34,603 nucleotides of DNA, taken from contig JAVHOD010000052.1 of the NCBI GenBank assembly GCA_036169835.1, forward strand, positions 1 through 34,603, read 5' to 3'. The notes below the pieces were generated by a model, which saw only the letters and a program-made list of their open reading frames with translations, was not told where the DNA came from and did not search any database. The stretch's first letter is position 1, and every line of letters starts with the position of its first letter. Positions 985 through 24,846 of the stretch are shown piece by piece. A program made the translations under genes and the position numbers. This stretch comes from Minisyncoccota bacterium. GTDB taxonomy: Bacteria; Patescibacteriota; Minisyncoccia; UBA6257; MFKM01.

Positions 985-1148
985 TATGCCCAGTGACTCA
1001 ACTCCGATGGTCCATCTGAATTTTCGGAAGAAAATTCAGATGGACAGAAGTACTGGGCAAAGAGTAAGATTAATTAAATAAAACAAAATCATTAATTATC
1101 AACTTTGACATATCTGATAGAATGTCGGAGTTGAGTTAACTGGGTATG
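985..1148. repeat. Inverted-repeat-bounded intergenic element, copy 2 (156 bp core 989-1144, flanked by TATG/TATG)
   Basis: cccagtgactcaactccga (989-1007) pairs with tcggagttgagttaactggg (1125-1144). TATG lies at 985-988 and at 1145-1148; the latter contains the hisS ATG. A perfect 15-bp hairpin spans 1010-1045, and TGATAGAAT lies at 1115-1123. Confidence 0.8.
1115..1123 (+). promoter_or_regulatory. Extended -10-like box TGATAGAAT upstream of hisS, inside element copy 2
   Basis: TGnTAGAAT motif 22 nt upstream of the hisS ATG. The same TGATAGAAT occurs upstream of nrdD (rc of 9959-9967), and TAGAAT occurs upstream of the NYN gene. Confidence 0.4.
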
Positions 1149-2892: not shown

Positions 2893-3091
2893 AAAAAAAG
2901 AAAAAGAATCGGTTGCCGGTCTCCTTTACCGCTTCAGTTTAAAGATGAAACAAAGCGGGATACTTCGCGAAGTTAAGAAGCGGCGTTTTTATCATCGGCC
3001 GCCTAATCGCCGCAAAACTCGGATCGCGGCTGTTTATCGCGAAGGCAAAAAGAAAGAGCTGGAGAAAGCCAAAAAATTAGGCGAATTATGA
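2882..3091 (+). CDS. rpsU: 30S ribosomal protein bS21
   Basis: 69 aa, very basic, S21-like core (LLYRFSLKMKQSGILREVKKRRFYHRPPNRRK). It overlaps the HIT stop by 11 nt and the ybeY start by 4 nt. Confidence 0.75.
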   Translation: MEIRKKEKESVAGLLYRFSLKMKQSGILREVKKRRFYHRPPNRRKTRIAAVYREGKKKELEKAKKLGEL

Positions 3092-3492
3092 ACGAAATTT
3101 CGGTTGTCAGTCTGAATAATAAATACCGATTTTTAGAGAAAAAAATAAGAAGGATAACCCACAAATTCCTTCAATTGCTGAAAAAAGAAAATTGTCATTT
3201 AGGGATTTTTTTAGTTACCAGCCGGAAAATGAAATTTTTAAATAAGAAATTCAGAAATAAAGACAAGACGGCCGAAATTCTTACTTTTATTGAACCGAAA
3301 AAATATCCCCATCCGGAATCCAAGTTTAAATTTCTTGGGGAAATTTATTTAAATCCCGATTGTATCGCGCCGGAAAATATTAGCCGTCTGGCAGCCCACG
3401 GCCTGCTTCATTTATTCGGTTTTTTTCACAAGAAAAAAAGTGATAGAATAAGAATGGAGGCTAAAGAATATTTTTTAATTTCCCATGTCTAA
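3088..3492 (+). CDS. ybeY: rRNA maturation endoribonuclease YbeY
   Basis: 134 aa with the zinc motif HGLLHLFGFFH (H-x3-H-x5-H). Confidence 0.85.
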   Translation: MNEISVVSLNNKYRFLEKKIRRITHKFLQLLKKENCHLGIFLVTSRKMKFLNKKFRNKDKTAEILTFIEPKKYPHPESKFKFLGEIYLNPDCIAPENISRLAAHGLLHLFGFFHKKKSDRIRMEAKEYFLISHV

Positions 3493-4708
3493 TATCATTA
3501 CCGGTCTTGATATCGGGTCAAGCAGCATCAAAGTCGTAGTTTCGGAAATCAAAAACAACGGCCGTTTTCTGGTTTTAGGAGCTTTCAAACGGCCTTCGGT
3601 CGGATTCAGAAAAGGGGTTTTATCCGATTTTGAAGACGCTACGGTTTCTTTGAGAAACATTATCAGTGATCTTAAGGGATTAAGCCCTAAAGCGCTTAAA
3701 AATGTTTATGTCAATGTTAATGGCGCCAATATTAAATCTTGTCTTTCAAAAGGCGTAGCCGGCGTGGCGCGGGCTGACAGCGAGATTCGCCGTGATGACG
3801 TTGAGAAGGCCATCCAAGCCTCCCGAGCCGTGAATTTGTCTTCAAATTACGTCGTGCTTCACAATATCACCCGCGAATTTTTCGTTGACGGCATCGGAGG
3901 GATTCAAGACCCTTTGGGGATGACTGGTACCAGGTTGGAAGTGAATAGCTTGGTGGTTGGGGCGTTTAGCCCCATAGTTAACGATCTGACCAAATGCCTG
4001 GAGCGGAACGGGATAACAACTGTCAGCGGCTTGATTTTCGGTCCTTTGGCGGCCAGTGAAGCGGTTTTATCAAAACAGCAAAAGGATTTGGGGGTTTTAG
4101 TGTTGGATATCGGGTTTGGCACTTCCAGTTTAGCCGTTTATGAAGAAAATAAAATTCTTAAAACTTTAAGTTTGCCGATAGGAGCCGGTAATATTACCAA
4201 CGACATTGCCGTTGGCTTGAGAATTCCGGTTGGAGCGGCGGAGAAAATAAAATTAAGTTATGGCTTCGCTTTTGCCAAAGAGACGCCGCGGCGCGAAGTT
4301 TTTAATTTACAGGAAATTGATAATTCATTAAAAGGCGAAATATCCAAACGTTTTCTTTCCGAAATTATTGAGGCGCGACTTGCCGAAATCTTTGAAATCA
4401 TAAATAATGAAATTAAGAGTTTGGACCCCAAGATCAATTTTCCGGCGGGCGTGGTTATCACCGGCGGGGGGGCTAAGTTGCCCGGAATAGTTGACCTGGC
4501 TAAGCAAGATTTAAAATTGCCGGTCCAGATTGGGCTTCCCGAGTTGACTAATTTTGATATCAAAGATTACGATTGTCAGGAGCTAATCAGCGATCCGGAA
4601 TTCGCCACGGCCGTAGGGTTGGCTATCTATGGGCTTAATCATCAGGAAGGAAACTCGCGCTCCTCAATTTTTAATTTGAAAAAATTTTTGCAGAATTTGA
4701 TACCATAA
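3485..4708 (+). CDS. ftsA: Cell division protein FtsA
   Basis: 407 aa actin-like ATPase. It has ITGLDIGSSSIKVVV phosphate-1 and VITGGGAKLPG motifs, and sits immediately upstream of ftsZ. Confidence 0.9.
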   Translation: MSNIITGLDIGSSSIKVVVSEIKNNGRFLVLGAFKRPSVGFRKGVLSDFEDATVSLRNIISDLKGLSPKALKNVYVNVNGANIKSCLSKGVAGVARADSEIRRDDVEKAIQASRAVNLSSNYVVLHNITREFFVDGIGGIQDPLGMTGTRLEVNSLVVGAFSPIVNDLTKCLERNGITTVSGLIFGPLAASEAVLSKQQKDLGVLVLDIGFGTSSLAVYEENKILKTLSLPIGAGNITNDIAVGLRIPVGAAEKIKLSYGFAFAKETPRREVFNLQEIDNSLKGEISKRFLSEIIEARLAEIFEIINNEIKSLDPKINFPAGVVITGGGAKLPGIVDLAKQDLKLPVQIGLPELTNFDIKDYDCQELISDPEFATAVGLAIYGLNHQEGNSRSSIFNLKKFLQNLIP

Positions 4709-4711
4709 GAG

Positions 4712-4956
4712 TATGCCCAGTAACTCAACTCCGATGGTATTCTTCTGTGATAATGCGTTGTAGGATAAAAAGATGAAGTTTATTTTATTGGTTATATCTA
4801 AAGAACCTAACAAAACAAACAGAAGAATACATCGGGACAAAAATCATTAAACCAAGATATATGAAAAATAAAAAACAAAACAAGTTAGTCGAATTAATAT
4901 CAATCAACTCCAAGATGAGAGATTTTTGTCTTTCGGAGTTGAGTTAACTGGGTATG
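4712..4956. repeat. Inverted-repeat-bounded intergenic element, copy 3 (237 bp core 4716-4952, flanked by TATG/TATG)
   Basis: cccagtaactcaactccga (4716-4734) pairs with tcggagttgagttaactggg (4933-4952). TATG lies at 4712-4715 and at 4953-4956; the latter contains the ftsZ ATG. A nested 17-bp stem pairs 4731-4748 with 4819-4835. Confidence 0.8.
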
Positions 4957-6087
4957 ACAAAAAATAAAAAATCCAAAGCTTTTAATCTGGCTCATATTAA
5001 AGTGGTGGGCGTGGGCGGCGCCGGCGGCCATATTATTACCCGAATGGCCCAGAAAGAAGGCATTAAAAACGTGGAATTTATTGCCATTAATACCGATGCC
5101 CAGGATTTGGAATACACTCAAGCTCGCAAGAAAATTTATATCGGCAAGACTTTAACAAGAGGGATGGGAGCCGGAATGAATCCGGAATTAGGCAGGCAGG
5201 CGGCCGAGGAAAATCGTTCCGAAATCAGCGAAGCGCTTCAAGGAGCCGATATTGTTTTTATTACGGCGGGTTTGGGCGGGGGGACCGGCTCTTTGGGGGC
5301 AGGCGTGGTGGCTGACATCGCCCGCGAGATCGGCGCTTTGACCATCGCTGTCGTCACCAAGCCGTTTTCTTTTGAAGGTGCCCAGCGGATGCGAATCGCC
5401 CAGGAGGCCTTAGCTCAAATTAAAACCAAAGTTGACACTTTGGTCGTTATTCCCAATGACCGGATTTTCAATATCATCAATAAAGATACCTCGCTTATTA
5501 AGGCCTTTGAATTTGTTGACGACATTTTAAAAAATGCGGTTCAAGCCATTACCGAACTGATTGTTTCTCCGGGGCTTATTAACTTGGATTTTGCCGATAT
5601 TAAAGCCGTAATGAAAGACGCCGGTTCGGCGATTATCGGCATCGGGGTGACCGCGGGAGCGGAGAGGGCGGCTAACGCGGTAAATATGGCTGTCAATTCA
5701 CCCTTATTGGAAAACTCAATTGATGGCGCTAAAGGCGTTCTTTTCAGTATTTCCGGCGGCCGGGACCTTAAAATGAGCGAAATCCAAATTATCGCCAAAA
5801 GTATTTCTGATTCCGTTGATCCCGGGGCTAAAGTTATATTCGGCGCTTATTACGACCGCCGGCTTCCCGCGAAACACATCAAAGTGACGATTATCGCCAC
5901 CGGATTCAGTTTCGGCAATACGCCTCAAATTATAAAGTCGGGTTCTTTGTTCACCCCTTTATACCAAGACGAGGCTGCGGAAATCGCCGACTTAGACAAT
6001 AAAAGAGAGAAACCGGTTGAAGAAAAAAATAAAGTTGAAGAAAAAACAGAAATTCCGTCTTTCCTGCGCCGCAAAAAACATCGGTAA
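4954..6087 (+). CDS. ftsZ: Cell division protein FtsZ
   Basis: 377 aa with VGVGGAGG and the GGGTGS tubulin signature. The C-terminal peptide is IPSFLRRK. Confidence 0.95.
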   Translation: MTKNKKSKAFNLAHIKVVGVGGAGGHIITRMAQKEGIKNVEFIAINTDAQDLEYTQARKKIYIGKTLTRGMGAGMNPELGRQAAEENRSEISEALQGADIVFITAGLGGGTGSLGAGVVADIAREIGALTIAVVTKPFSFEGAQRMRIAQEALAQIKTKVDTLVVIPNDRIFNIINKDTSLIKAFEFVDDILKNAVQAITELIVSPGLINLDFADIKAVMKDAGSAIIGIGVTAGAERAANAVNMAVNSPLLENSIDGAKGVLFSISGGRDLKMSEIQIIAKSISDSVDPGAKVIFGAYYDRRLPAKHIKVTIIATGFSFGNTPQIIKSGSLFTPLYQDEAAEIADLDNKREKPVEEKNKVEEKTEIPSFLRRKKHR

Positions 6088-7088: not shown

Positions 7089-7817
7089 TTAAAGATTTCT
7101 TAACTCGGTAGGCAGATATTTATTGCATTTTTTTTGAATGGTTTCTAACTGCTTTTGTCCGAAGGGTTTGTATTTTTTATATTTCGGGTTGATTGTCTTT
7201 TCGGGTTTGAATTGCTGAAGAAAATATTTTTTAGCGCCTTTTAATTGTTTGGCTATATCTACAATATCTTTTAGTTGGTGTAGTTTCGGTATGATTGTGG
7301 TTCTGAATTCATAATTAATTCCGGATTTTTTGATTATCTCAATGCTTTTTTTAATTTTTTCTAAATTAACTTTCGTCCCCGCCACTTCGTCATATTTTGA
7401 AAATTGGGAATTGGAAATTGGAAATTGCGCCAAAGGCGCCTTTATGTCCATAGCCACATAATCTATGAGTTTTTCATCAATTAAGTTTTTTAACATTTCG
7501 GGATTTGAGCCGTTGGTGTCAAGCTTCACCGCATATCCAAGTTTTTTTATTTTTTTTATAAAATCCGGTAGGTTTTTATTTATGGTAGGTTCTCCGCCGC
7601 AGATTGCCACGCCATCCAATAGTCCTTTTCTTTGTTTTAAAAAATCAAAAAAATCTTTTTCGGAAATTTTAGCGTGTTTGTTAATATCTTCGGCTAAAAC
7701 CAATTCGGGATTATAGCACCAGGGACAGGAAAAATTACAGCCAACTAAAAAAACCGTGGCCGCGATTTTGCCCGGATAATCAATAAGGGTAAGTTTTTGG
7801 AGACCGCCTATCAGCAC
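7089..7817 (-). CDS. nrdG: Anaerobic ribonucleoside-triphosphate reductase activating protein (radical SAM)
   Basis: 242 aa with the CNFSCPWCYN radical-SAM cluster motif and GGEPT. It follows nrdD with a 1-nt gap. Confidence 0.85.
   Translation of the reverse strand: MLIGGLQKLTLIDYPGKIAATVFLVGCNFSCPWCYNPELVLAEDINKHAKISEKDFFDFLKQRKGLLDGVAICGGEPTINKNLPDFIKKIKKLGYAVKLDTNGSNPEMLKNLIDEKLIDYVAMDIKAPLAQFPISNSQFSKYDEVAGTKVNLEKIKKSIEIIKKSGINYEFRTTIIPKLHQLKDIVDIAKQLKGAKKYFLQQFKPEKTINPKYKKYKPFGQKQLETIQKKCNKYLPTELRNL
7399..7439. repeat. Heptamer tandem repeat plus GC hairpin inside the nrdG CDS
   Basis: On the coding strand, aatttcc aatttcc aattccc aatttt encodes QFPISNSQFS. It is preceded by the hairpin gcgcc-aaa-ggcgc (7427-7439), which encodes APLA. 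Confidence 0.7.
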
Positions 7818-14445: not shown

Positions 14446-16338
14446 TTATTTTTGGAGCGTTTGAGTGAAGACGCGCATTATTGAGCCTGATAAAGATTCC
14501 GGATTAATAGAACCGCTGGGCGGAGGAGTGGTATTTTCGGTTGGCGGCGGAGTTTGAGTTGGCGGGGGAGGAGTATTACCTGTTGGCGGTTGCTGATTTG
14601 CCGGCGGCATCATTCCCTCCGGCGGATTTGTCATTCCCTGCTGGGGTTGTTGAGGTTGTTGTCCTTGTGGTGGCATATTTTGTTGAGTCGGCGGCTGTTG
14701 GTTGCCGGTTGGCGGCTGCTGTTGTGTTCGCATTTGTCCTTGTTGTCTAGGCTGTCCGGGTTGATTAAGTTGACCGGGCTGATTTGGTTGACTTGGTTGA
14801 AAATTTTTACATTCCTCAGGATTAGAAGTGCAGTATTTTTGGCATTCTTCCGGCCCCTTGCAACCGCCTGGACCAGCCTGCTGTGGCATTTGTTGGCCGC
14901 CTGGATTTACAGTCCCTGATCCAGGTTGAAAATTTTTACATTCCTCAGGGGTTTTACACCCGCCCAGCTCTCCTTGTCCGCCAGCCGACATCATACCTCT
15001 GGCGTTTGATCCGCCTTGGTCTTGAGACCCGCTTTGCCCCTGGCCTTGGGTTCCGCCCTGGCCTTGTTGATTTTGTTGATTTGACTGACCAGGTTGATCT
15101 TGGCCTTGCTGATTTTGACCCGGCCTTCTTTCTTGCGTTCCAAATTTTTGAAAACACTGATTGATAGAATCACCAGATTGTCGCCCAATCACAGATCCAG
15201 TTTTCATTTTTTCAACAACATCAGCGCCTAAAGAAGACGATATACAATCCAAAACTTCAGGCGGTATTGAAGAAAAAGAGTCTTTCATTTTTTGCTGGCC
15301 CTCTTCCATCCTTTTTAGATCAGCCTCGGGAATCATTCCATTTTCTTTGCCAAACTGAAAACAAGTTTCTTGATTGTCGGGATTATTGCAAAAAGTATCG
15401 CATTCGTCTTTGTTTTTACAGCCGCCCGGCCCCTTGCCTCCGGTCTTACGAACCATAACCGCGTCTTCTTTGCTCATAAACCCGGCCGCTTCAGCGAAGC
15501 TGGTGCATTCTTCAAAATGAGCGTCTTGCGAGCAATAAGTATTGCATTCCTCTTTGCCTTTACAGGCCGGCGGTTTTATCCCTTGTTTTATAGCCGCCAG
15601 CATTTTTTGGGAGTCGGCTTTTTCTTGTTCGTTCATAAAACCGGCTTCAATGGCGAAATTTGTACAAACTTCCATATTATTAGGTTCGCCGCAGTATTGG
15701 TCGCACGCTTCTTTGCCTTTACAGGGCGGCGGTTTCACGCCTCTTTTTAGAGCCGCCAGCATTTTTTGAGAATCTTCAAGTTCTTTGCCCTGGATAAAAC
15801 CCGCTTCCACGCCGAAAGCCACGCATTTCTCCATATTATTCGGGTCCTCGCAATAAGAATCGCATTCTTTTTTATTTTTACAGGGCGGCGGTTTCACGCC
15901 TCTGGCGATGGCCGCTTGAACTTGTTTGGCTTCCGCCAAATCTTTCGCCGACATTAAATTATTTTTTTCCGCGAAAGAAACGCAATCATTGATGTTGTTG
16001 ATATCGTCGCAATATGTTTCGCAGGCGTCTTTGCCGGCGCAGCCGCCGGGCCCCTTGCTCCCTGACGCCACGAAATTTTTGGCCGTATTGACTTCATCTT
16101 TCGACATCAGGTTGTTTTTTTCGGCGAAATTAAGACAAGCAGTGTTATTGTCCGATTTGTCGCAATAGGTCTTGCAGGATGCCGCGTCTTGGCAATTGCC
16201 AAGCTCCTTTACCGGATATTGGAGATTTGCCGCGCCGGCTGTTTCTTGAGCCAAAGCCACTTTATTAAATAAACCAACCGAGCCGATTATTGCTATCGCG
16301 GAGATGATAATAAAACTTATGAGATATTTTGTTTTCAT
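14446..16338 (-). CDS. Secreted cysteine-repeat protein with a Q/P/G-rich C-terminal half
   Basis: The start is placed at ATG 16338 (MKTKYLISFIIISAIAIIGSVG..., a signal/anchor). It has six about 45-aa modules with C-x5-C-x3-C-x9-C spacing followed by F(A/G)(E/I/V).. helices, plus two partial modules, then long Q/P/G/N low-complexity sequence. Confidence 0.8.
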   Translation of the reverse strand: MKTKYLISFIIISAIAIIGSVGLFNKVALAQETAGAANLQYPVKELGNCQDAASCKTYCDKSDNNTACLNFAEKNNLMSKDEVNTAKNFVASGSKGPGGCAGKDACETYCDDINNINDCVSFAEKNNLMSAKDLAEAKQVQAAIARGVKPPPCKNKKECDSYCEDPNNMEKCVAFGVEAGFIQGKELEDSQKMLAALKRGVKPPPCKGKEACDQYCGEPNNMEVCTNFAIEAGFMNEQEKADSQKMLAAIKQGIKPPACKGKEECNTYCSQDAHFEECTSFAEAAGFMSKEDAVMVRKTGGKGPGGCKNKDECDTFCNNPDNQETCFQFGKENGMIPEADLKRMEEGQQKMKDSFSSIPPEVLDCISSSLGADVVEKMKTGSVIGRQSGDSINQCFQKFGTQERRPGQNQQGQDQPGQSNQQNQQGQGGTQGQGQSGSQDQGGSNARGMMSAGGQGELGGCKTPEECKNFQPGSGTVNPGGQQMPQQAGPGGCKGPEECQKYCTSNPEECKNFQPSQPNQPGQLNQPGQPRQQGQMRTQQQPPTGNQQPPTQQNMPPQGQQPQQPQQGMTNPPEGMMPPANQQPPTGNTPPPPTQTPPPTENTTPPPSGSINPESLSGSIMRVFTQTLQK

Positions 16339-16339
16339 A

Positions 16340-16639
16340 TTATTCAAAAGGATTAGTTTTAACATTTTTAAAGGGGTTAGCTTTGTCGGCCGGATTGACG
16401 TCGGGTTTGCTTTCTAGGGGGTTTGCCCCTACCGAGGGCAGGACGCCTTTGGTGGCGCTTTCGGTTATAGCTCCCGCCGCTTCGCTGGCATTTTCCAATG
16501 CTTGGGTAAAGGCCTGGGACTCGGTTGACTTAGGCGTTGTTTTGGACTTTTTCCAATTACTCCAGTAGAAATAACCGCCGACTCCCAGCCCAATTAATAA
16601 AACGACCGCTATTATTAATAAAAGAGTTTTTTTATTCAT
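16340..16639 (-). CDS. Small membrane-anchored hypothetical protein
   Basis: 99 aa with an N-terminal TM helix (LLLIIAVVLLIGLGVGGYFYW). Its stop lies 1 nt upstream of the Cys-repeat gene start. Confidence 0.6.
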   Translation of the reverse strand: MNKKTLLLIIAVVLLIGLGVGGYFYWSNWKKSKTTPKSTESQAFTQALENASEAAGAITESATKGVLPSVGANPLESKPDVNPADKANPFKNVKTNPFE

Positions 16640-24703: not shown

Positions 24704-24846
24704 GCCAATGTGATTAAAATTTTCAATTACCAATTCTCAATTTTCAATCAATGACTAAATTTTCAATTTCCAAACGTTTGAAAATCAGTTCATTGAAAAT
24801 TTATTAGAAATTAGAAATTGGAAATTAGAAATTCAGACCAAGCCCT
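24704..24846. repeat. AT-rich repeat-laden imperfect palindrome between the adaptor and ATPase genes
   Basis: There are three direct aattttcaat copies on the left. The centre is the palindrome caaacgtttg. On the right are cattgaaaat and four (a/g)gaaatt units (tagaaattagaaattggaaattagaaatt). Confidence 0.7.

Follow-up and report, generated by a model that had tools for sequence, protein, structure and literature searches.

A small inverted-repeat element at the ftsZ start codon of a Minisyncoccota bacterium and its relatives that encode a GIY-YIG nuclease

What separates ftsA from ftsZ in the genome of a Minisyncoccota bacterium, and how does ftsZ keep a usable start? In contig JAVHOD010000052.1 (assembly GCA_036169835.1; all 34,603 nucleotides were analysed and are called the window), a 241-bp insertion is tolerated between these two cell-division genes, whose ratio matters. 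The initial annotation of this DNA had taken the insertion for a copy of a mobile element, bounded by inverted termini and by a 4-bp target duplication that restores the ftsZ start codon, and had placed it in one family with copies before hisS and beside lepB; our analysis bears out both points. The 237-bp copy, c3, is probably a decayed, non-autonomous member of a family of tiny start-codon elements of Parcubacteria that encode a GIY-YIG nuclease, an account in which we include mobilization by that nuclease and translation of ftsZ by re-initiation.

The termini and TATG flanks of c3, the second flank carrying the ftsZ ATG, lie exactly where they had been annotated (Table 1). The terminal repeats of 19 and 20 nt are perfect save for one bulged T, and the ends can be told apart, end A being CCCAGTRACTC and end B CCCAGTTAACTC, with one T more. 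As had also been remarked, exactly the same 21 nt precede the ATG codons of ftsZ and hisS, and the long left end is recovered as a pair of 32-nt arms (356–387 and 4715–4746, 97% identity) that makes it the reverse complement of the end of copy c1. The 20-mer terminus has three matches in the window and none in 100 shuffles, and the folds predicted for 4700–4970 have z-scores of −7.0 as RNA and −5.7 as DNA.

Comparison with related genomes shows that c3 was inserted. The reconstructed empty site, TAA-gagt-ATG with a 4-nt junction, is backed by four relatives with FtsZ proteins 80–91% identical, in which the ftsA–ftsZ spacer is 26, 3, 25 and 7 nt long, and not a 245-bp spacer with unrelated ends; given these short spacers, c3 is a real insertion. 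A pattern scan detected paired termini in metagenome-assembled genomes (MAGs) of Candidatus Jorgensenbacteria, with six copies, and of Wolfebacteria, plus at least 120 metagenome loci. It extended the terminal similarity to at least 100 paired elements, at least 77 of them unique, across other genomes and metagenomes; the family counts given here rest on these elements, and fractions of 77 are fractions of the matches listed.

Two contigs that are syntenic with the window, L054 and L026, carry elements at the starts of ybeY and ftsA, where the window is empty. At the ybeY start, AATTATGAACG in the window corresponds to AATTATGA, the element and TATGAAC in L054; at the ftsA start, TTCCCATGTCT in the window corresponds to TTCCCATG, the element and CATGTCT in L054. 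Filled and empty alleles thus differ exactly at these two starts, and the family moves. Target duplications are 3–5 bp long, comprising TATG (50 of the 77), TATGA (7), AATG (5), CATG (4), ATG (2), CGATG (1), three without ATG (CAAG, CAGG and CCTG, one each) and five mismatched pairs. They are true duplications, because the variable bases in AATG, CATG, CGATG and TATGA are duplicated too. With terminal repeats, a target duplication, empty alleles, dispersed copies and no intact enzyme gene, c3 has the properties of a non-autonomous MITE (miniature inverted-repeat transposable element).

Copies with c3-type termini at both ends also occur with a gene inside. In a class of 313–318 bp, a 94-amino-acid open reading frame (ORF) that starts at the left flanking ATG (MPSNSTPMVFFYTYVLLSLNDGEYYVGYTNNLRKRLEEHNSGKNFSTKPRRPLRLIYFEACLNEDDAKQRERYFKSTIGRRYLSKRLRNWRKTS) is a GIY-YIG domain (PF01541, E = 1e-17, 64 bits against a cut-off of 22.6). 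From these sequences, the intact element of about 295–320 bp would consist of one gene for a nuclease of about 94 amino acids, of the Slx1/UPF0213 type, with an inverted repeat of 19 or 20 nt at either end. The element body does not supply the start ATG: the nuclease starts at the left copy of the host's duplicated ATG, the equivalent of the left ATG of c3, and its codons 2–7 lie in end A. The nuclease frame accounts for the one-base asymmetry of the ends, because end A gives ATG CCC AGT AAC and an extra T would give ATG CCC AGT TAA. In end B, the extra T creates a TAA in frame with the host ATG, 6 nt before it. A change of repeats goes with a change of nuclease lineage; P0109 and P0117, for example, both have CCC(G/C)GTGCTACAACTTCGA.

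The encoded protein appears to be functional, judging by its evolutionary rates, catalytic residues and structural relatives. Among eight intact copies, dN/dS is 0.08–0.21 in 26 of 27 informative pairs (0.76 in the near-identical pair L138/L036), and in 23 homologues Y25, G27, R35, H39 and E59 are invariant, with conservation of 90% or more at Y12/Y14. Among solved structures, those of Slx1 and of the UPF0213 proteins EF2693 and BH0048 are the closest, with 1YWL matched at E = 9e-8. A structure model (predicted local distance difference test score 89) superposes on Slx1 chain 7cq3_A with a root-mean-square deviation of 1.6 Å over 76 columns; BH0048 and Slx1 are its best fold matches, and I-TevI and UvrC are weak ones. 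Bacteria of the candidate phyla radiation (CPR) hold 158 close homologues, many of which start with MPSN, that is, they are encoded by repeat variants, and the wider family comprises 8463 clusters (50% identity, E ≤ 1e-3). The identical nuclease P0001 was found at 10 places, which all proved to be one argS/smpB/infC locus in different samples, and was rejected as a case of recent transposition of a coding copy.

What c3 has in common with the coding copies is ~125 nt at the start of the element and ~35 nt at its end. The catalytic core is gone, and the match to the nuclease covers the first 11 residues only. We therefore read c3, from its sequence, as a single, non-autonomous, decayed copy that lost the middle of the nuclease gene and that, without the core, would move only with nuclease supplied in trans.

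An (N)ATG directly follows end B in 74 of the 77 unique copies, and all 74 have the same orientation, with end A upstream and end B on the gene side. About 68 of the downstream frames stay open for at least 60 codons or run off the contig, the other six being short or cut at a contig end, and the host genes include hisS, ftsZ, ftsA, ybeY, smpB, ileS, a lexA-like gene and a pilT-like gene. At 57 sites there is a same-strand upstream gene, with its stop no more than 15 nt from the ATG in 38 and overlapping the ATG in 11. All seven TATGA duplications lie on ATGA stop/start overlaps, where the left copy preserves the upstream stop and the right copy preserves the ATG. Most other sites resemble leaderless genes in having a TATAAT-like box 6–7 nt ahead of the ATG. 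Nearly all genes of the window lack Shine–Dalgarno motifs, which are also very few at the insertion sites, and many genes have such a box at that distance or a stop codon within a few nucleotides of the ATG. Leaderless starts and stop/start coupling seem to be what this lineage relies on.

Selection against broken genes does not suffice for this pattern. The window contains 16 TATG sites at start codons, 24 in other intergenic positions and 138 inside genes, so that the purging of gene disruptions alone would predict about 40% of insertions at starts (16 versus 24), whereas about 90% were observed, in addition to the orientation bias. Relative to control starts, the site logo is enriched, beyond the ATG itself, only in T at −1 (78% versus 44%) and A at +4 (60% versus 38%).

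At least 16 unique copies of 230–245 bp lie at different genes in related Parcubacteria with a common internal layout, and c3 is of this 237-bp class. The 16 copies are 68–98% identical to one another and keep three helices, and the stem differences between the 313-bp and 237-bp classes are compensatory. The inverted internal copy acagaagaatacatcgg and the terminus fragment tcaactccaagatg that had been annotated in c3 are both present at their positions. The second is conserved across the 237-bp class, and its equivalent co-varies with the repeat in L144 and L101. In L101 (760–850) and equivalents (compare window 4736–4748 and 4819–4830), the codons for MFFY (ATG TTC TTC TAC) and I/LEEH (xTA GAA GAA CAT) are reverse-complementary, so that the stem is written into two conserved protein motifs and is retained in the non-coding copies. 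By this comparison, 4819–4835 and 4904–4917 are best taken as conserved stem partners inherited from the coding element. Rfam gave no match in the window at the gathering threshold, nor in 4650–5010 at E ≤ 1, and a tRNA scan found nothing.

A scan of the + strand for sigma-70-like promoter consensus and terminators found none inside c3, which makes co-transcription with ftsA the simplest reading; an internal c3 promoter for ftsZ is not supported by the consensus scan. The sole promoter-like match among the copies is in c2 (TTATCA-16-TAGAAT with TG). A relay of small ORFs leads from the ftsA stop to the ftsZ start (Table 1). The last of them, ORF2, has a frame that is open in 16 of 16 copies, the other two frames holding 0–2 and 2–6 stops; its codon-position entropies are 0.48, 0.55 and 0.82, with third positions the most variable, and its tail (..DFCLSELS, then stop) resembles the C terminus of some intact nucleases (..NFCLLK, then stop). 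Our preferred reading is that ftsZ would be translated by termination–reinitiation after ORF2; alternatively, upstream translation may unfold the terminal stem, or the stem may be processed. The initial annotation had flagged the insertion because the ftsA/ftsZ expression ratio is normally tightly controlled, a reasonable concern, but one that arises in a family specialized for just such stop/start junctions. The tolerance of the insertion points to robust re-use of the start codon by re-initiation or leaderless-type translation.

We propose that an intact element would insert at NATG on a host start codon, in sense orientation, and would duplicate those bases; the left ATG copy would then start the nuclease and the right copy would restore the start of the host gene. 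The nuclease may recognize the folded ends, a three-helix junction of the terminal repeats and two internal stems, and would cut both the element ends and NATG targets in a staggered way, with host ligation or repair completing the move. At the locus studied here, ftsZ would be co-transcribed with ftsA through the element, and translation would re-initiate after the 28-codon ORF2, the TAA of which lies 6 nt before the ftsZ ATG. That the nuclease mobilizes the family is a step we infer from sequence. A bolder version, tentative and in our estimate slightly less probable than its opposite, is that the coding relatives form a new class of autonomous transposon, with a bare Slx1-like GIY-YIG nuclease as mobilizer, start-codon capture, folded three-helix DNA as substrate and an orientation set by non-palindromic 4-nt NATG cohesive ends.

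Several points weigh against this account. A hydrolytic nuclease on its own cannot join DNA, and a transposase with the same repeats could lie outside the metagenome loci scanned, of which there were at least 120. The site logo gives no account of why start codons are used rather than other NATG sites. The full relay of small ORFs, from left ATG to host ATG, is present in 12 of 73 copies, c3 included, where 4.2 would be expected; this is enriched yet far from universal, and we do not claim a coupled-ORF relay as a general mechanism. In coding copies, the nuclease stop sits 33 nt upstream of the host ATG; together with the small number of copies that have the relay, this means that re-initiation cannot be the whole story. 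Base pairs hardly covary inside the 237-bp class, a single pair being compensatory, which leaves DNA-level and RNA-level roles of the stems inseparable. Finally, among the junctions compared, a 237-bp element lies between ftsA and ftsZ in the window and L026 only, and c3 is 83% identical to this positional counterpart versus 92% to L014, which lies at a different gene in a MAG of Jorgensenbacteria; re-insertion, conversion or replacement could have shaped the history of the site.

Inverted repeats with 3–5-bp target duplications are the hallmark of DDE transposition, and c3 could be one of the ordinary MITEs, mobilized in trans by a transposase of a conventional kind (DDE, for example), the GIY-YIG gene being a passenger or a stabilizing selfish gene. 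By established knowledge of GIY-YIG enzymes, strand transfer is not catalysed by the nuclease alone, and a partner transposase could be missed among the metagenome loci listed (at least 120). We nevertheless regard this as somewhat unlikely: a search for repeat pairs 400–6000 bp apart with up to three mismatches, in 143 sources (the window and 142 loci), returned one artefactual pair and no larger element; the repeats closely bracket the nuclease ORF, and are themselves coding in part, in most of the coding copies examined; the two change lineage together; the nuclease frame accounts for the end asymmetry; and a symmetric DDE reaction would not usually yield a strict sense orientation. Alternatively, c3 might be kept as a host RNA element, a processed stem (for example, by RNase III) or a coupling tuner, that sets the FtsA:FtsZ ratio. 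Its 19-bp terminal duplex brackets the spacer exactly, from ftsA stop to ftsZ start, ORF2 stays open, and a comparison of the window with L026 finds repeats and stems fully intact and the element as a whole (83% identity) better conserved than third codon positions of ftsA (57%; ftsA overall, 79%). The same element, however, precedes genes as unrelated as hisS, ybeY, smpB and ileS, it matches no Rfam family and hardly covaries, close relatives do with a spacer of 3–26 nt, and its conservation is explicable by recent re-insertion or conversion, all of which makes a host role quite unlikely.

A spread as free-standing homing endonuclease genes, in which a break in the empty allele is followed by recombinational copying and the flanks are microhomologies, is suggested by the enzyme itself, as GIY-YIG nucleases such as I-TevI and T4 Seg are classic homing endonucleases (PMC2988022). 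It would also suit the different members found at the same sites in related genomes (the ftsZ starts of the window and of L026, the c1 site and its equivalent in L054, and L016 versus L106), the greater similarity of c3 to a copy elsewhere, and the right copy being TATG in all five mismatched duplications. Homing, however, needs long homologous flanks and a long recognition site, whereas dozens of unrelated target genes share NATG only; variable first bases are duplicated faithfully (AATG/AATG, CATG/CATG, CGATG/CGATG); and the fold is Slx1/UPF0213-like and lacks an I-TevI-type DNA-binding domain. We consider this mode of spread very unlikely, and assignment to the homing endonuclease gene class was rejected on account of the unrelated NATG-only targets and the duplications. 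The initial annotation had read c3 as two generations of one element, nested or abutted. Indeed, its interior holds an inverted copy of the left subterminal region and a terminus-like fragment and folds into two side-by-side hairpin modules within the terminal stem, and other size classes combine the left and right halves differently, such as the ACAAAGCT left module with either right module. Yet 237 bp is a standard size class whose layout recurs at 16 or more different genes; c3 has neither a complete internal terminus nor an internal target duplication; past ..ATCGG the internal motif runs on as GACAAAAATC and not as a terminal repeat; and both internal motifs already lie in the ORF of the intact 313-bp element (codons ..LEEH.. 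and ..KRLRN..). As these motifs are partial, shared by the class and part of an intact gene, a composite origin is not supported, and we hold it to be highly improbable.

The probable account, a start-codon element with its own GIY-YIG nuclease, has partial parallels in known systems. Correia elements of Neisseria, ERIC elements of enterobacteria and Rickettsia palindromic elements (RPEs) are ~100–250 bp long, with inverted termini, a short duplication, many copies and an mRNA hairpin; these gene-adjacent bacterial MITEs are co-transcribed, some carry promoters or processing sites, and RPEs tolerate translation. They are not restricted to start codons, nor is their orientation fixed as sense, and their known parents are DDE insertion sequences (ISs), whereas the parent of the c3 family encodes a GIY-YIG nuclease that uses the host ATG. 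IS200/IS605 elements, the smallest known autonomous ISs, and their PATE derivatives have one small enzyme, strand and orientation specificity, a short target and many non-coding derivatives. They have an HUH Y1 transposase and subterminal hairpins, lack terminal inverted repeats and target duplications, and measure ~600–700 bp or more; the c3 family, by contrast, has terminal repeats and duplications of variable sequence and length at about half the size, and its true terminal repeats and variable duplications rule out the IS200/IS605-derived PATE class. Slx1 and UPF0213 proteins (BH0048 and EF2693) are the best matches of the nuclease in both sequence and fold. The cleavage of branched DNA by Slx1 suits an element whose fold is a three-helix junction, but Slx1 is a host repair enzyme with Slx4 and a RING domain, unlike the element nuclease. 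To our knowledge, UPF0213 has no assigned function, no Slx1 or UPF0213 protein is bounded by inverted repeats or mobile, and no IS family uses a GIY-YIG nuclease, is so small or targets start codons in one orientation. A literature search found no description of such start-codon GIY-YIG elements. On sequence grounds, the coding relatives do not appear to be any known IS type, and the family appears undescribed in the literature searched.

Like T4 Seg and I-TevI, the coding relatives are selfish genes between or ahead of host genes, with a GIY-YIG nuclease as sole product (PMC2988022). In homing enzymes, DNA binding resides in a domain of its own and the recognition site is long; they copy themselves into the cognate allele only and come without inverted repeats or target duplication, whereas the protein of the c3 relatives is a bare catalytic domain of ~85 amino acids, with many unrelated targets and with both repeats and duplications. 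GIY-YIG-encoding non-intron insertions in CPR rRNA genes are likewise small and belong to the same bacterial radiation (PMC11270868); they are located in rRNA genes, and inverted repeats, target duplications and start-codon use are not reported for them.

If the bolder version is right, the coding relatives would be the smallest self-mobilizing elements known, and their nuclease may represent a new enzyme class for transposition. Start-codon capture would mean that an element with neither start codon nor promoter uses the initiation signals of its host and returns a regenerated ATG. Such a selfish element could persist in an extremely compact genome, at the one position that gives it expression at no cost and at which an imprecise loss would destroy a gene the host cannot do without. 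A family of elements this small, tied to a GIY-YIG nuclease and settled on host start codons, would surprise a specialist. For genome annotation, the copies break assemblies and yield spurious small ORFs and mis-called nuclease starts. A structure- or NATG-directed nuclease of 94 amino acids might serve as a laboratory tool.

Table 1. Element copies, features of c3 and its surroundings, helices and distant relatives. Positions are in the window unless a locus is named.
Feature	Position	Strand	Details
Copy c1	208–386 (179 bp); whole 204–390	−	Opposite orientation; CTTG/CTTG flanks
Copy c2	989–1144 (156 bp); whole 985–1148	+	Reduced; TATG/TATG flanks; right flank carries the hisS ATG (1146)
Copy c3	4716–4952 (237 bp)	+	TATG/TATG flanks; before ftsZ
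ftsA stop TAA	4706–4708	+	4 nt ahead of left duplicated ATG
Left target duplication TATG	4712–4715	+	ATG 4713–4715 opens relic ORF MPSNSTPMVFFCDNAL, then stop
Left terminal inverted repeat, end A (19 nt)	4716–4734	+	cccagtaactcaactccga; encodes nuclease N-terminal PSNSTP
Helix H2, left arm	4736–4748	+	GGTATTCTTCTGT; nuclease codons MVFF
Helix H2, right arm	4819–4835	+	acagaagaatacatcgg; intact-gene codons ..LEEH..
Helix H3, left arm	4836–4845	+	GACAAAAATC; 313-bp-class equivalent GGCAAAAATTT
ORF2 (28 codons)	4861–4947	+	MKNKKQNKLVELISINSKMRDFCLSELS, then stop; TAA 4945–4947 within end B, in frame with ftsZ ATG
Terminus-like motif	4904–4917	+	tcaactccaagatg; pairing possible with inner half of end B
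Helix H3, right arm	4921–4930	+	GATTTTTGTC
Right terminal inverted repeat, end B (20 nt)	4933–4952	+	tcggagttgagttaactggg; extra T makes TAA
Right target duplication TATG	4953–4956	+	ftsZ start codon 4954–4956
Relay step ftsA	start 3485; stop TAA 4706–4708		4 nt to next start
Relay step ORF1a	ATG 4713; stop TAG 4761–4763		9 nt to next start
Relay step ORF1b	ATG 4773; stop TAA 4848–4850		10 nt to next start
Relay step ORF2	ATG 4861; stop TAA 4945–4947		6 nt to ftsZ ATG 4954
Unoccupied TATGA, ybeY start	3087–3091	+	Filled in L054 and L026 with TATGA duplication
Unoccupied CATG, ftsA start	3484–3487	+	Filled in L054 with CATG duplication; related element in L026 at its own ftsA start
Helix H1, 237-bp class			Left arm end A; right arm end B
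Helix H2, 237-bp class			Left arm GGTATTCTTC; right arm GAAGAATAC
Helix H3, 237-bp class			Left arm GACAAAAATC; right arm GATTTTTGTC
Helices, coding class			H2 GGTGTTCTTCT / AGAAGAACAC (codons MVFF and LEEH, mutual reverse complements); H3 GGCAAAAATTT / AAATTTTTGCC
Distant copy L143			Left TATG then CCCGGTGCTACAACTTCGAT; right ATCGAAGTTGTAGCACCGGG then TATG; stop within right repeat
Distant copy L144			ATG duplication; ends of CCCAGTAAC / CCCAGTTAAC type
Distant copy L145			Nuclease stop overlaps host ATG as ATGA
Distant copy L159			TATG / TATG; stop in repeat
Distant copy L032			CATG / CATG; 23-bp repeats
Distant copies in L156 (Wolfebacteria JACQNN010000040)	L156 780–1230		Two different inverted-repeat elements in tandem at one start codon of a pilT-like gene
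Distant copy L160 (Logan SRR28386827)	L160 500–810		TCTA / TCTA; 11-bp repeats CCCTGTGTAAT; own ATG; inside a gene

Copies more distant than the 313–318-bp class keep the architecture with different repeats (L143, L144, L145, L159, L032 and L156; Table 1). Of the tandem pair in L156, one member encodes the GIY-YIG nuclease and the other is a non-coding element of ~130 bp, each flanked by (A)TGGA(T); the nuclease ORF of the coding member is coupled to a mini-ORF through a TAATG overlap. The GIY-YIG element in L160, at 60% identity, interrupts a GxxExxY-type ORF; with its own ATG and a position inside a gene, it shows that members of the wider family need not use host start codons.

The window encodes pth (minus strand), lepB, hisS, a HIT protein, ybeY, ftsA (assigned by Pfam), ftsZ and a NYN protein, followed on the minus strand by a radical-SAM protein and an NrdD-type reductase. 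In c1, end B points toward pth, the start of which is 21 nt away; this copy is a nuclease pseudogene truncated to its N-terminal half (tblastn, 52% identity over 48 aligned positions, query residues 2–46, E = 1e-8); L091 has the same deletion form, which is distinct from that of c3. c2 is a yet further reduced form, in which end A is followed by a hairpin and end B is preceded by a −10-like box with a TG extension (TGATAGAAT), and its hisS site is also occupied in L054. A scan of the window for additional inverted repeats abutting start codons returned c2 and c3 only; a match within the radical-SAM gene was dismissed as a chance repeat and not a family copy.

The syntenic contigs differ from the window in further ways. 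At the CTTG site equivalent to c1, in the pth/lepB spacer, L054 (~4523–4655) carries different repeats, CCCCGTTAGAAACC...GGTTTCTAACGGGG, and the surrounding spacer is ~93% identical by eye; sites seem to be re-used, or elements replaced. In L054 (9251–9472), recR and not ftsZ follows ftsA, so the ftsA–ftsZ linkage is not fixed in the group. Between lepB and hisS, L026 (4400–7533) has ~3 kb that include an 804-amino-acid ORF, where the window and L054 have a short element only.

Elsewhere in the window, direct repeats with a period of 159 nt (15374–16058, three to four copies, 60–77% identity) lie within a 639-amino-acid ORF on the minus strand (14446–16365), which probably encodes a repeat-domain protein. 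Runs of GGAAATT/GAAATTG-like heptamers at 7386–7435 and 24718–24842 are mutually inverted (41 nt, 83% complementary).

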